Under the pieces are notes generated by a model that worked only from the letters and a program-made list of their open reading frames with translations, was not told the origin of the DNA and did no database searches. Below are positions 38,861 to 61,345 of a DNA stretch of 64,000 nt, in pieces (positions within the stretch are counted from its first letter, which is position 1; every line of letters starts with the position of its first letter). The position numbers were made by a program, and so were the translations under genes. This DNA comes from Catajapyx aquilonaris. Taxonomy: Eukaryota. Location of the stretch: positions 1 to 64,000 of the forward strand of contig KZ538059.1 in the NCBI GenBank assembly GCA_000934665.2, written 5' to 3'.

Positions 38861-39353
38861 AATGATGCCAGATGAATCAAAGGCTGAGCCTGGGTTGACA
38901 TCCATGAATCATGAGCAGAATTCTAGGAGGGAAGGGATCATGAAGGAATCATGAAGAACTGATGAAGCGACTTCACTCAGGCACGCAACTAGTCCAAAAC
39001 AAGCTAAATTGCAGTTCCAGTGCGCCGCCAATGACACTTTACCGATGGCCGTCGTGCGACACGCAACGCCATTGCCTAGGAAACCATTGCACCACCTAAT
39101 AATGTCAATTGCTGGGATGTCCGTTGGGATAGCCTAAATTATTATTTTTCTTTTACGACAACTCTACGAAGGACGCTCCTTACCAACACGAGAAAACAGT
39201 TTCTAAACTATGCGATGTGTGACCGAATTTCTGATCAGGACTAGTCCTCCAATTTTTCCCAGGGACTTTGACCCACTGAATGAATCGTGCTTTATTGTCC
39301 CATTGTCGTGGAAGTGTCAACAATATGGCTGCTCAGCACTATCTTATCAGAGA

Positions 39354-39658
39354 ACCGAAGCAGGTTGGTGTAGTGGATATGGAGTCCGCCTGCTAATCGG
39401 GAGGTCCTGGGTTCGAGGTTCGAATCCCGGTGCCGGCAACTCTGACCGTGGTTTTCTGTGGTTTCCCACGGTTCCTCCAGGTGAATACCGGAGTTGTTTC
39501 CTAATTAATAGGCCACAGCCGCTTCCTTCCATCCCTATCCCGTCCCAAAAAGCGAAATAAAGGTTACAAGAGTTCCAGCCAAAAAAAACAAACAAATCTC
39601 CCCCCTAAAAAGCCAGAACGGCTTCAATGGGGTATGATATTTATTTATTTAAATTTAT
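39354..39658 (+). mobile_element. tRNA-derived SINE, copy 1
   Basis: A box tggtgtagtgg; B box ggttcgaatcc, with a duplicated ggttcga; ctgctaa anticodon-like loop; (TTTA)n tail; 15-bp TSD ctatcttatcagaga at 39339-39353 and 39659-39673; full-length similarity to 59223-59513. Confidence 0.95.
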
Positions 39659-42600
39659 CTATCTTATCAGAGAGAAATTGCCTAAATTATTATCGATTGA
39701 AAAGCTATTCGCTACAGACGAGTGGTAGGATAGCTTAAATTTGTTATAATACCAGAGATGACTATAGCCTACTGCAATAGCTGAGAAGCCTTTCGTCAAT
39801 GTAACCGTTTTTCTTATAAATTTTGCGAGAACCCGGTGTGGAGAATTTCTGTGTGAATATTTTTTTTGCGTTTGGTAAGCAAATCCCACCTTCGGGCTAT
39901 TTTTCACTTTTGTAGCTGTGAAATCTTTTGGATAGGAATTGGACTCAATATCCTAAAAATCTAGACTTTCGCTTATGGTAGGCTTGCGTCAGGCACATTT
40001 AGGACATTTCTGTACCACATTAATTGTTATGGAGCGGCCAAATTAAAAATTCTCCGCTCTGGTTATATTTTTACATCGCAAAATAGTTACATTGAGCTTA
40101 CCTCTGGTTCTGACTGGCTTTAATATTTAGTAGGTCCTGTTATATTGCTTCTATAGTATGCGACCTCCTCTACTGATTCCGCAGACAGAAAATACATTAA
40201 CATGCCCCATTTCCGCTTCAAATCTAAAATTAATTACCCTGCAAGGCATTTACCTGTATACATTCTCCACTAGGCTCCATTGTTTGCACATATTAGTGTA
40301 CGTACTCTATGTGTTGATCTTGCACTGTACACCATAAAATATGCTATTATATTATTACGAGGTTATTTTAGTGCCCAATTTTATCCTCGTGGGAAAACAT
40401 GATTACAATATTAGTGTATGAACTGACTGAAATAGGCCAGCGGTTTTTAGAGCTCGTGTATAAATAACGCCAACTTTCCCTACATTTCATTCTGCGGCCT
40501 TTGTAACCAGCCTTTTTTTCCTGGCAAAATTGGCAATCTCGTGACATGTACAAGATCAACATGTTTTTATCCATCTAAATCCGTTCGACCAGGAGGTCAT
40601 TAGATACAGAATCGTGCATGTCCCTCACGTGTTGTAGCAGCCAAAAAGACATTTCCTGAGTAATTAGAAGGAGCTTTTGGCACACAAGACCAGCCAAAAA
40701 GTTCCTACTGCATATGGAGAGAGTGCACCGAGCTCAGCCGTACTTATTACGAGCCAGCAGTTAGTTTGATTTATGCCCCATTTCCATGTCTTTCAAGCAT
40801 TACCGAGTCATACCGCAGTCGGGAGTTCCTGCCTACGTTATGTGTGTCGCGTATACATGCACAGGCTACGTGCGATAATGACTGTAATTGAATTTTCTGC
40901 TGCCATTTTGGGGCGGCATTCAATAGAGACATCGCCAACAGCGCCTTAATAAGCACTCGGGTGCTTCTGATAAGAAAATGGCGTCAACATGTTGTGTACC
41001 TCCTTTTATCCCCAGAAGAGTTTCAGCGAAATGTTGCAGGTGGATTGAGTTTGACAAGGTGAGGGTCAGAATCGATTTTCAGTCACTTACCACTGCTACT
41101 TTCTGCACAGGAAATTAAGTTACGAGCGCACTTATGTGTGACGCCAAAGAAGCGGCACGTCCAACTTGATCATCCCGAAAGTGACTTGATTGTTTCGCGC
41201 CATAAAAACTAGGGGTGACGTGGCTTACAGGTCGATACGTGGCTTGGTACCCACGAGTCAATCTGACACGGTGACAAAGGCTATTAATACGTGTGCGAAA
41301 CAATGTTTTGTCGCCTCTTTGCGGCCGATAGTAGCGCAGCCAAGTGTTGAAATCTGAAACTACAGACAAAGAGATGTTAGAAAGGAGAGAAAAAAAAGTG
41401 GGCGGGATGCTCTGGATGTTACGACGAACTGCGTTTTTTTATAGCATATACCAGGCTCCCCTTGGAGGGTTAATCTGTCTTAATAACGGGGTGTTAGGGC
41501 GTAGCCAGGATGCCATTTGTCAAGGTGGAATGGGTTGTGAATCGTGGAGAGAAAAGAGAGGAAGAAATTAAAGAGGGATAGGTTATCCTTCTCTTAGCCT
41601 GGGTAATGAATACTACTCGGGCTAATCCTTTGTCTTCATCTGATCAGACAAGTAGGTCAAGAAAACAAGGAGTTCAAGTGCGAATAAATTCATTGCCGAA
41701 TAAAAATTGACATGGCCACCATCATGTTAGGGTGCATCGGGCCGTAATGGTAATCCGTACGACTCGACTATAATTCCTGGCCTCCCTTGTCTGATTATCA
41801 GCTAAATCACATTTTATTCCCCGGATGAGAATCAAACATTCTGCATCCAATCGGCAAGCCTATAATGGTATTGCGCCAGGGAGGAAATTTCAATAGTTGT
41901 TTAATCAAAATCAGTGCTGCGGACAAATCCCTGTGGAGGCCAAATTAGATTGGTGATTTGTGAAAGCTCGCCCGGCGCATAATGGCCAAAATGACTAAAC
42001 TGTAAAACCCCTTCACGGTGCATTGTTGGCCAAGACAATGGCGTTACATTTATCAAACTCCAGAGAGGCGGTGGAGTGGAATTTTTATTCCTGTTCCTTC
42101 CATTGGTCTCAGTTTGGCGGAAATGTTGAATTAAGCAAAGTGCACCGTTGTCGACTTTTTCTGCCCTGTAATTTGTTTCCAGGAAAGCGGATTTGCGTCT
42201 GCGAAGACAAAGGTCAAAATGGCGACTTGGAAGAGATATACGGCCTCTTTATTGGTTTTGGCTTCCTGCGGAGAAAGGTCGACATACACCCGCCCAAAAG
42301 AACGAAGAAGAACTTAAGTAATAATAGAGCTGGAGTGTGTCACACGTCTATTTTCCGATACACTACTATCTTATCCTCTGCTTATATTCTAGCCATAGAT
42401 CCCAAAAAGAACCACACACGGAGGGAAAATTAATTAGCTAAATCGGTTTTCCCCTGATTACCTGCAGGGCAATTAAGGGCATTTTACTGCTGATCTTTCG
42501 ATAATTCAGAACAAGATTTACGCCCGCGAGGACTTATTAGAGTAACAATTCGCATAGTGAATACTAATTCTTTTCTGCAGCCATGATGCCACATTTCTCC

Positions 42601-58665: not shown

Positions 58666-59222
58666 GTAAACAGGCTTTCACCTCCCAAAATCCCCTTCCG
58701 CCATATTAGATTACGACAAGACATTAACGAGGGCCAATTTTGAGGCAGACTTTCCAAGTAACAGAATGAAGAACTTTGTGAGCCCCCTCAAACACCCGAG
58801 CTGAATTATTAAAAGATGACACGAAAACAAGTTAGTCAGCTATTCATCTCTCGCAGGCCGCTGGATTTATTAGGAATGAGATGCAAATTTTCCTGCACGT
58901 TACAAAAAAACCGGCCCTTTATAAGCTCCAGGCCCCCTTTTGAATCGAGGTACAGTATAAATAATTACAACAATTACAGCCCCCCCCCCCTCCCCATAGT
59001 TGGTACGTTGACTATTAATTTTCCTTCACGCCCACAAGGCCCACTGTCGTCACATGAGGCCACCAGAACCCTACCCGCACCTCATTGAGGGACTTCAACA
59101 CACAATTGTCTATATGTCATCCTAGGAAAGGCTTCGGTGCCACGCGACGCCTTGGTAACCCTAACTTACTTCTGCCCAGTTGCTGGAAATTTATCGTGAA
59201 TTTATAGGAACTGGTTCGGTTC

Positions 59223-59513
59223 ACCGAAGCAGTTTGGTGGAGTGGCTATAGGGAACGACTGCTAATCGGGAGGCCCTGGGTTCTAGCCCCGGGGCCGGCA
59301 ACTCTAACCGTGGTTTTCTGTGGTTTCCCACGGTCCCTCCAGGAGAATTCCGGAGTTGTTTCCTAAATTAATAGGCCACAGCCGCCTCCTTCCTTCCCTA
59401 TCCTATCCCAAAAAGGAAAGTAAAAATGTACACAAGAGTTCCAGACAAAACAAAAATCCCCCCCTAAAGAGCCGAAAAAGGCTGATAACGGGGTAAGATA
59501 TTATTATATTATA
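59223..59513 (+). mobile_element. tRNA-derived SINE, copy 2
   Basis: Same family as 39354-39658. A box tggtggagtgg; degenerate B box ggttctagccc; TTA/TTATA tail; 21-bp TSD ttataggaactggttcggttc at 59202-59222 and 59514-59534. Confidence 0.95.
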
Positions 59514-61345
59514 TTATAGGAACTGGTTCGGTTCAGAATATTCGCCTGTACAAACTTGCACATAATGATTCAGTGATTGTATTATATTGCATAAATGTGA
59601 AAAAGAATGAAATGTAAATTCAAGAATTAAAAGATTATTTGCGTTGGAGCATCACTGGTTTACAGTAAACACGTTGGAGCTCCTCAAGCTTCATATTTTT
59701 GCTCGTAACTGTACAGTGTAGCAGTTTTAATATGGAACTATGTAAACAGCTAGTGGCAAGCATAATTTTGCTAAACATGTACCGTACATTCTGAATATGA
59801 GGAGCTGGAAGCATAAGCAAGCCGTAGGCTATATAGAAGTGGATTTAGAGAAAAATATGGAGGCTTATCAACACAAAATGCTATATCCGGAGGGTAGGAG
59901 CAACTTTGTTGCAACATTTAAAGTCATCGCTTGCATCTCGATATAGAAACTGCTGCAGTTCATACCTTTTATAAATATTTAGCCTACCTTTTATTATTCC
60001 GGGCTTTTGTCATAGCGCGAGATAACAGTATGCGAGGTTTGAATGATGAATAGCAATCTGGATCATTGCAACATTTTGAACCAATATTTTTCACTGTAGC
60101 TTGACGAGTGTATTGTCAATTGGGAGCTTTTAACAATATTGAAGGACAGAAAAATGTGATCTATATAGAGAGCAGCACTGTATGACGAATAAATGCAGTA
60201 TAGTTGCACATTTCATTTCCCGCTATTTATGGCTGAACGCCGTAGCATATTCCGAGGTACTATCCTGTAAGAGACTCTGTAGGCCCCAGAAAATGTACTC
60301 CATCGGCAGTTGGTTTTTGTTTTCTGTAAAAACAAGCCTGCGGGCTTCATTTCCCGCCCAACGGATCCTTTCCCATCATGTACGGACCAGAATAAATAAT
60401 GACGAAACACTGTATTTGCTGACCTCCATCTTGAGTTGTTCTTCTTGCCTGCTGCCAACTTACGAGTAATACGCTCGAAACAAAAGAAAAATGTGAAGAA
60501 GCACATGCTTTGTCCTGCCGCTAAAACATTTCTCTTGACGAGTCCGAATCGGTCAATAAAGTAAACACTGATGAGTGTATGGTGGCAGGAGGAGCTAAAA
60601 AAAAAAGAAATATCGCAAGTTCCTTCAGAAACAGCGATGTTCAAAATCTCTCCCAATGTTCCTTTCCTCTCTTTCTCCAAAGATCGAAGGCTTGGAAACC
60701 ATTAGAGTGGAGCTTATGCGCCGCCCTCAGAACCCAATCCCCAGGAGGAAGCTTTATACTGTGAAAACAAAGAAATTCTCCAAGAGAGCAAACGCTTCCC
60801 CCCTCCCCTCCCCCCACCTTATCCCCCCATGGCCCCCACCCCCCGGAAGTGATGGCTAATCCTCCCTCCAGGTTTTCAAGGGGGTCAGAGAGGGAGAAAG
60901 CAGTTTGTTTCGTTAGAGTCCAACATCCCTGAGTGCTTCTTACACCCGGAGTCTTAATCTTCCACAACTATGTGGACAAGACAGTGTCGGAATATACTCA
61001 GGATTTTTTGAACTATAGTATTAAATGGAGTGGTTACATTTTATGCGGGCTGTTTTTAAGTGGGAAAAAACGTATTTTTTCACATACCAAGTGGAAACTA
61101 AATGAGAGTGTAGTGCTAAACATTTTGAATAATCTTATTAATACTCCAAAATGTTGGATATGATTAAAAAATCATGATGTCAATGCAACGAATCCTGTGT
61201 ATGACAATTCATTCCTGTCCAGAACAAAAAAAAAACACAATGTTGTAGAAATGTAGAACGAAGGACACCGCTATCGCACTCAGTTATCGCTGTGGGTACT
61301 CTGGAGTGGGTTGTATTGAGATAAGTGGGGCCTGGCTAAGTTGTA

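Follow-up and report, generated by a model that had tools for sequence, protein, structure and literature searches.

In several SINE superfamilies a "highly conserved domain" (HCD) is found, defined as a module common to SINE families whose other parts differ, and nine such domains are listed for metazoan SINEs (PMC5804259 and PMC4758252, as far as their sections on these domains go). Why some of these central domains hardly change, with heads and tails turning over around them, has been called "a major enigma" (PMC5804259, in part). One of them, the Inv (alpha) domain, corresponds according to these sources to the 5' part of Nin (Nin-DC); it is present in cricket, termite and cockroach SINEs such as Taluc and Gbim, where Pln sometimes accompanies it (PMC5804259, PMC4758252, both in part), and conserved hairpins are attributed to it (PMC5804259, in part). 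For the V domain of mollusc and arthropod SINEs, a stem-loop was predicted in the Vhc subdomain, and T runs inside the domain, with C or CT directly after them, were described (PMC4758252, in part). The B2 SINE RNA was reported as a self-cleaving ribozyme (PMC13172522, in part).

The element described here lies in a stretch of 64 kb (64,000 nucleotides, referred to as the window). An earlier reading of the letters alone (the sequence-only reading) had proposed that the central domain of a SINE at 39435-39518, here called the core, folds into four helices (P1 to P4) locked by a pseudoknot. Compared by description, as far as the sources on Inv/alpha go, that domain and the core are both central, follow directly after the tRNA-like head, are common to varied families and can form hairpins; the two separate, deeply covered blocks found here (39436-39471 and 39508-39543) also recall the two-domain arrangement reported for Inv. 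P1 and P2 (see below) are conserved hairpins of the sort described for Inv/alpha, which does not imply identity with the hairpins of the 2011 paper. The core shares with the V domain a T4 run (39452-39455) followed by CT, but Vhc, again compared by description, is a different domain, a single hairpin with an internal loop and not a helix-closed junction. B2 RNA, too, is transcribed from a tRNA-derived SINE and is proposed to have a structured and active body (PMC13172522, in part); it belongs to a rodent family with no sequence relation shown to the core. We put the probability at about 60% that the core is a structured central domain of the HCD kind in an abundant tRNA-derived SINE, forming a P1-closed junction in the sense RNA.

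Identity of the element

A 305-bp element on the forward strand lies inside perfect direct repeats of 15 bp, and just 5' of its first nucleotide many contigs diverge into unrelated sequence. It can be aligned end to end with a second element of the window (BLAST; about 20% overall difference), which is flanked by its own duplications, and both copies carry A/T-rich simple-repeat tails. The window contains exactly two matches to a 22-nt core motif, a number seen in none of 100 shuffles. No third copy was detected in the 64-kb window by BLAST with both copies or by a covariance-model search; the covariance model, made from four cores (copies 1 and 2 and the two related sequences L082 and L002 described below), recovered only the two known copies, the next-best match having E = 0.6. 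The coordinates of all features are given in Table 1.

Table 1. Coordinates of the SINE copies, their parts and the proposed helices in the window.
Feature	Position	Strand	Basis
SINE copy 1, full element	39354..39658	+	15-bp repeats; contig breaks; alignment to copy 2
Copy 1 target-site duplication, left, ctatcttatcagaga	39339..39353	.	read in sequence
Copy 1 target-site duplication, right; same 15 letters as left	39659..39673	.	read in sequence
Degenerate tRNA-like head	39364..39438	+	Rfam tRNA model score, A- and B-box motifs
P1, 5' strand (9 bp with 39490-39498, three G.U)	39435..39443	+	
P2, 5' strand (7 bp with 39466-39472)	39445..39451	+	RNAalifold
P2 loop, 14 nt, UUUUCUGUGGUUUC	39452..39465	+	identical in copies 1 and 2, L082 and L002
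P2, 3' strand (pairs with 39445-39451)	39466..39472	+	one double change; RNAalifold
P3 mini-hairpin, 3 bp (39480-39482 with 39487-39489), 4-nt loop	39480..39489	+	
P1, 3' strand (pairs with 39435-39443)	39490..39498	+	double changes; RNAalifold
P4 hairpin, 4 bp (39500-39503 with 39509-39512), apparently family-specific	39500..39512	+	
Second deeply covered block, common to several families of the genome	39508..39543	+	contig depth, branching
CCACAG, proposed pseudoknot 3' strand (6 bp with 39456-39461)	39513..39518	+	exact complementarity
Stem-loop in the 3' body, directly before the A/T-rich tail	39602..39632	+	full-length minimum-energy folds of both copies
SINE copy 2, 290 bp (core 59297-59381)	59224..59513	+	alignment, model match
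Copy 2 target-site duplications, 22 bp	59202-59223 and 59514-59535		read in sequence

The head of copy 1 contains an A-box-like motif, TGGTGTAGTGG (39366-39376), and what we take to be a B box, GGTTCGAATCC (39417-39427), both judged against the general consensus sequences of these boxes. The head scored 14.8 bits against the Rfam tRNA model, under the gathering score of 29, and no tRNA was called in it by ARAGORN; it therefore appears to be degenerate, as is usual for SINEs. Between the start of the element and the A-box-like motif there are 11 nt, the same distance as described for cockroach SINEs and Talua (PMC9191728, in part). Taken together, the target-site duplications, the tRNA-like head, the many copies, the short length and the A/T-rich tail identify the element as a tRNA-derived SINE.

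The core is the best-conserved part of this SINE. Between copies 1 and 2 it is 94.1% identical (80 of 85 columns), compared with 76.2% for the head, 83.8% for the next 3' block (37 nt) and 65.6% for the body of the tail. The core of copy 2 differs from that of copy 1 by four substitutions (39444 G>A, 39473 T>C, and 39482 T>A together with 39487 A>T) and one insertion (an extra A in the P4 loop), exactly as the sequence-only reading had described, and its statements that the domain is the centre of a SINE and that head and 3' part are more diverged than the core agree with the duplications (15 and 22 bp), the tRNA-like head, the approximately 2,000 contig pieces per run of one sample (see below) and the identities given above. 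We also considered whether the core could be a second tRNA, 5S or 7SL fragment, and rejected this since Rfam gave no such hit on 39439-39560. Twelve of the 21 open reading frames of at least 110 aa in the window were compared with Pfam, and no family was found among them.

Abundance and modular sharing of the core

Four contig sets containing the window were identified, plus one from a second study, and none of them is recorded as RNA. The contig sets of three DNA runs from one sample, and of one run from a second study, were compared with the region 39340-39680 at 80% likeness. The three runs of the one sample contained 2,304, 1,971 and 2,214 matching contig pieces, and the run of the second study 189. 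Depth was very high at the B-box region, at 39436-39471 and at 39508-39543, with a dip at 39472-39507, and in the tail (39556-39650) it was roughly 50-100x below that of these two blocks. Contigs branched into other sequences after 39472, after 39481 and at 39540/39541. The depth profile together with the branching indicates that the head plus the core are common to several families with different middles and tails, and depth, branching and the two related sequences L082 and L002 all show that SINE families with unlike heads or tails have this central domain in common. The best reading of these sequences is that the core behaves like the HCDs of SINE superfamilies.

Modular sharing bears also on another explanation, that the core has no function as an RNA structure, is conserved for other reasons, and that its helices are relics or side effects. 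It might act at the DNA level, as a control element for pol III or as a hotspot of recombination or template switching by which heads and tails are exchanged, its conservation might reflect recent common descent, or it might derive from a hairpin-bearing parent RNA or LINE segment. HCD-mediated recombination is a published hypothesis (PMC5804259, in part), and the points at which contigs of our data set branch coincide exactly with the borders of the conserved blocks, as would suit such an exchange. The substitutions in the core, treated in the next sections, make us regard this explanation as somewhat unlikely, and we return to the structured domain with the pairs themselves.

Compensatory changes between two lineages

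Every pair of P1 to P4 and of the pseudoknot, checked on the sequence 39435-39518 as written, is a standard pair, so the five pairings of the sequence-only reading exist as it had placed them. A scan of metagenomes with an 18-nt degenerate motif yielded at least 116 loci. Among the matches listed, two (L082 and L002, from one metagenome) are related SINE-like elements and 114 are chance matches. Further scans gave only chance matches in contigs of prokaryote genomes (0 and 3) and in viral contigs (1, 0 and 1). L082 and L002 share with the window copies a 25-nt block, GTGGTTTTCTGTGGTTTCCCAYG, the architecture and a similar end of the head, and nearly all of their other sequence differs. We count them as a second lineage and not as a second species; they could in principle come from the organism of the window itself.

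The four cores were aligned by MAFFT, beginning where the head ends and stopping after P1, from sequence only and with no structural input (alignment A3). A MAFFT alignment that included the 3' part (A2) had a 10-column gap in the 3' strand of P1; pair counts were taken from A3. For P1-P3, 90.5% of the 74 cells in A3 were paired, compared with 34-49% in six controls in which the 3' partner was slid, and changes on both sides were present in 5 of the 19 pairs (slid controls: 0, 0, 0, 0, 0 and 1). The covariation score observed on A3 was reached by none of 500 shuffles.

In P1 there are three double changes, found in L082 and L002 (A-U to U-A, C-G to U-A and U-A to C-G), and the U.G pair at 39443/39490 is retained in all four sequences, which fits pairing in the sense-strand RNA rather than a palindrome in DNA. 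P2 has one double change, in L082, where C-G has become U-A; L002 is a decayed copy in which this P2 pair is broken and another P2 pair is G.U. At the third pair of P3, copy 1 has U-A, copy 2 has A-U and L082 has U.G, and two P3 cells are broken in L002. The double change between copies 1 and 2 that the sequence-only reading had seen as preserving P3 is thus one step in a series of three states. RNAalifold on A3 returned both P1, with G39444-C39489 added to it, and P2, and counted four compensatory pairs; P3 was not predicted by RNAalifold on this alignment. P4 has no counterpart in L082 or L002, and is specific to the lineage of the window copies.

Consequently P1 is well supported as a conserved RNA helix and P2 is supported as one, both by double changes and by RNAalifold, and P3 is plausible as a conserved hairpin. 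Of the structured domain claimed by the sequence-only reading, P1 and P2 hold and P4 is lost, being absent from L082 and L002 and having one of its pairs broken by 39509 T>C (see below). The covariation comes from few events in two independent lineages (copies 1 and 2; L082 and L002 from a single metagenome). If the helices were relics or side effects, it would be hard to see why the three double changes of P1 and the one of P2 all fall at partner positions and are all complementary. In DNA or in an antisense RNA, the conserved U.G and two more G.U pairs would not match, and the antisense strand of L082 folds no better than shuffles (z = -0.7). These observations argue for pairing of the sense RNA, and we infer from them selection at the RNA level.

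Variation within the family

Variants making up at least 3% of contig depth were found at 19 of the 84 core positions: 11 of the 46 stem positions, 8 of the 26 unpaired positions and none of the 12 positions of the pseudoknot. The sequence-only reading had named an equal spread of substitutions over stems and loops as evidence against a selected fold. The frequencies are indeed similar (11/46 versus 8/26), so that stems are as variable as loops, as expected if the helices had no function; yet pairing can be kept with 10 of the 11 stem variants. Eight of these form four reciprocal pairs with similar shares in run X1, two in P1 (39438 A>G 12% and 39495 T>C 10%; 39441 T>C 22% and 39492 A>G 15%), one in P2 (39448 G>A 4% and 39469 C>T 7%) and one in P3 (39482 T>A 78% and 39487 A>T 74%), where all shares are marginal, depth-weighted values from contigs that do not cover the linkage of paired variants. 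The stem variants at 39440 and 39497 lead to G.U or G-C pairs, and 39509 T>C breaks a pair of P4. The paired shares match poorly in run X3 (e.g., 39495 T>C 3% versus 39438 A>G 13%), and the variants at 39448/39469 may be independent decay because both lie in CpG sites.

For P3, the form of copy 2 is the majority form in the family and copy 1 has the minority form (39482 T>A at 69-83% and 39487 A>T at 73-86% of depth in the four runs). Three loose-end consensus strings over P3, which represent sister families, have A...T at the third pair without exception; with the four aligned sequences, none of seven has a mismatch there. P4 varies within the family, 39509 T>C being common and insertions occurring after 39501 and 39502.

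Folding energy and a competitor of P2

A helix of the P1 type (8 bp) arose by chance in 42 of 20,000 shuffles of copy 1 and in 151 of 20,000 shuffles of L082. The 84-nt core has a folding z of -2.1 (4 of 200 shuffles fold equally well), and the four cores of 65-69 nt have modest values (z = -2.4, -1.25, -1.7 and -2.55). P1 is part of the minimum-energy fold of all four cores. The minimum-energy fold of the 84-nt core retains P1 and P4 and replaces P2 and P3, and the structure of the sequence-only reading is at -21.3 kcal/mol, compared with -26.7 kcal/mol for the minimum-energy fold.

The competitor of P2 is the hairpin CUGUGG-UUUC-CCACGG (39456-39461/39466-39471). Its pair probability in the full-length RNAs of the two copies is 0.97 and 0.75, compared with 0.02 and 0.25 for P2, and the pair probability of P1 is 0.0 in full-length copy 2. 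Energy predictions are thus unstable from copy to copy, which would be expected if no fold were selected, and the most conserved part of the core is a loop sequence and not a helix, which points the same way. In L082 a G-to-A change makes the competing hairpin weaker, and only in P2 is this change compensated; no other evolutionary observation speaks for P2 against its competitor. We retain the P1-closed junction as the preferred structure.

The loop and its possible partner

The P2 loop contains both the T4 run and the 5' strand of the proposed pseudoknot (39456-39461). This strand is identical in the four sequences; its partner reads CCACAG in copies 1 and 2 and in L082 and TCACAG in L002. 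Within 39435-39518 no variant of at least 3% is present at 39449-39464 or 39510-39518, and none is present through 39522 either. The strands being invariant (apart from TCACAG in L002), covariation is silent on the pseudoknot.

A pseudoknot between the P2 loop and CCACAG is possible from these sequences. It is an essential part of an explanation in which the core would be a compact tertiary module, the three-way junction and P4 being locked by the pseudoknot and active in self-cleavage, exonuclease resistance or the binding of ribosome or RT. The two hexamers are exactly complementary and have no variants of at least 3% in the family, and the relative retains the downstream hexamer in spite of changed flanks and spacing (46 nt versus 40 nt from the block to CCACAG; TCACAG in L002). 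Furthermore, P2 (CCGUGG/CCACGG) and the pseudoknot (CUGUGG/CCACAG) give each 5' strand one fully Watson-Crick partner, and the self-cleavage reported for B2 RNA (PMC13172522, in part) offers a precedent. However, strands without variation allow no covariation, and a 6-bp match between loop and tail is found in approximately 5% of shuffles (1,058 and 916 of 20,000 for copy 1 and L082), so that the exact complementarity pointed out in the sequence-only reading stands but is weak against chance. The complementarity could also follow simply from the presence of two near-repeats, GTGGTTTTC followed by TGTGGTTTCC on one side and CCACGG with CCACAG on the other. In addition, P4 is not conserved, and CUGUGG is predicted to pair with CCACGG instead (the competing hairpin above).

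Searches of Rfam gave nothing in the window core at the gathering score, and at E up to 10 no family of any kind on the core of copies 1 and 2, L082 and L002. The ribozyme-like module suspected by the sequence-only reading therefore has no Rfam ribozyme match in the four copies even at this threshold, and a ribozyme role of the core is unsupported. Exonuclease-resistant RNAs consist of a three-way junction with a pseudoknot from a loop to a downstream sequence, forming a ring that involves the 5' end. The core would be like them in coarse topology alone, and matches no curated Rfam model. We regard a compact and active tertiary module as distinctly unlikely.

Proposed role of the core

As a SINE, the element would be a non-autonomous retrotransposon transcribed by RNA polymerase III. 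In its sense RNA, P1 would close a domain directly after the tRNA-like head, and would enclose P2 and probably the 3-bp P3, which would give a three-way junction with the 14-nt P2 loop as its most strictly conserved part. The fold may be kept by selection on the source copies that are still retrotransposing, and not by the host. Most likely the domain would then work in cis, folding by itself and exposing the invariant loop to a partner, which could be a protein of the partner LINE, a host protein or the downstream CCACAG, and the fold would keep the 3' part, recognized by the LINE, free of the head.

The 7SL fold in the left arm of Alu/B1 is kept because it recruits proteins that help to capture the LINE machinery. 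The Alu fold descends from 7SL RNA, and the protein that binds it is known. Conservation for the benefit of the host, as an exapted functional ncRNA or regulatory element, is discussed for the HCDs of some vertebrate SINEs (PMC5804259, in part) but is hardly credible here, as the two window copies look like any other insertion, their target-site duplications being intact, differ from each other by 20% overall, and share their sequence with some 2,000 contig pieces per run of one sample, which indicates amplification and not locus-specific constraint.

A bolder form of the structured central domain is an autonomous module in which the P1-P2-P3 junction, locked by the pseudoknot, would protect or process the LINE-recognition part after removal of the head. 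By analogy, it would block 5'-3' decay like viral exonuclease-resistant RNAs, or cut itself. We hold both the module and these activities to be improbable; if true, they would assign a definite biochemical task to conserved SINE domains that have long lacked an explanation. Should P1 and P2 alone stand, the core joins the structured SINE bodies proposed before; should the pseudoknot or an activity stand as well, it would represent a new class of mobile-element RNA module. The junction, the invariant loop and the complementary hexamer in any case offer a concrete, mutable target for the conservation described as enigmatic (PMC5804259, in part).

Hairpins in such SINE domains are already in print, and the support added here is real but thin, since it comes from two lineages. 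The literature on SINE domains that we covered, which stands apart from the original papers of Luchetti and Mantovani, contained no proposal of a compensatory closing helix or a pseudoknot, and strings of the core motif were matched in the full-text literature only by papers that are unrelated by title. The sequence-only reading named Lm1 and Talua as insect SINEs with a similarly organised body. Accession numbers for Talua are given in the supplement of PMC4348803.

Outside the core, the minimum-energy folds of both full-length copies contain a predicted stem-loop at the end of the 3' body (Table 1), the loop of which differs in copy 2.

Modular layout of the SINE and its sister families

Contigs of the same organism branch from the SINE into other sequences at the positions given in the table, which reveals sister SINE families that have in common the head and the segments 39436-71 and 39508-40 but differ in the middle and in their 3' bodies. 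With its two conserved blocks set apart from each other, the window SINE recalls, by analogy, the two-domain arrangement of Inv and Pln (highly conserved SINE domains) that is described for some insect SINEs in PMC5804259. A short motif of the 3' body, CCCCTAAAAA, is common to both lineages, being found also in the 3' part of L082 and L002 (the two loci of one metagenome that carry a diverged relative of the SINE core); this shared motif lies far from the core and suggests that the overall layout of the two lineages is related, and not the core alone.

Positions of the features in the two SINE copies of the window
Feature	Copy 1	Copy 2	Basis
B-box region with 7-nt tandem duplication (copy 1)	39410-39423
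Internal T4 run (potential terminator)	39452-39455	59314-59317
Branch points of contigs	39472-39507; 39540-39541		same-organism contigs
Motif CCCCTAAAAA	39600-39611
3'-body stem-loop	39602-39632	59462-59494	full-length fold prediction

The duplication in the B-box region consists of GGTTCGA twice in tandem and is missing from copy 2. Elements lacking these 7 nt account for only ~7-8% of the depth in the three runs that come from a single sample, and for ~22% in the run of the second study, so the duplicated form is the common one.

Internal T-run and 3' stem-loop

The most conserved block of the SINE contains a T4 run, directly followed by CT, which from its sequence is a potential polymerase III terminator. 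In the contig depth data the run of copy 1 showed no variation within the family at the 3% level, and the alignment of the four cores places it in L082 and L002 as well. PMC4758252 likewise notes, for mollusc SINEs, T-runs followed by C or CT, a context regarded as favouring read-through and the same as that of the window SINE.

The 3'-body stem-loop, which directly precedes the A/T-rich tail and has the layout CCCC ... AAGCC-loop-GGCTT ... GGGG, was predicted in both copies, whose loops differ from each other. As modelled, it looks like the type of 3' hairpin that is recognised by the reverse transcriptase of a partner LINE; no 3' end of a partner LINE was found within the 64-kb window.

The window has 21 ORFs that reach at least 110 aa; none of the 12 scanned against Pfam gave a match, which makes the window look largely non-coding. 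It also includes an assembly gap of 85 N.
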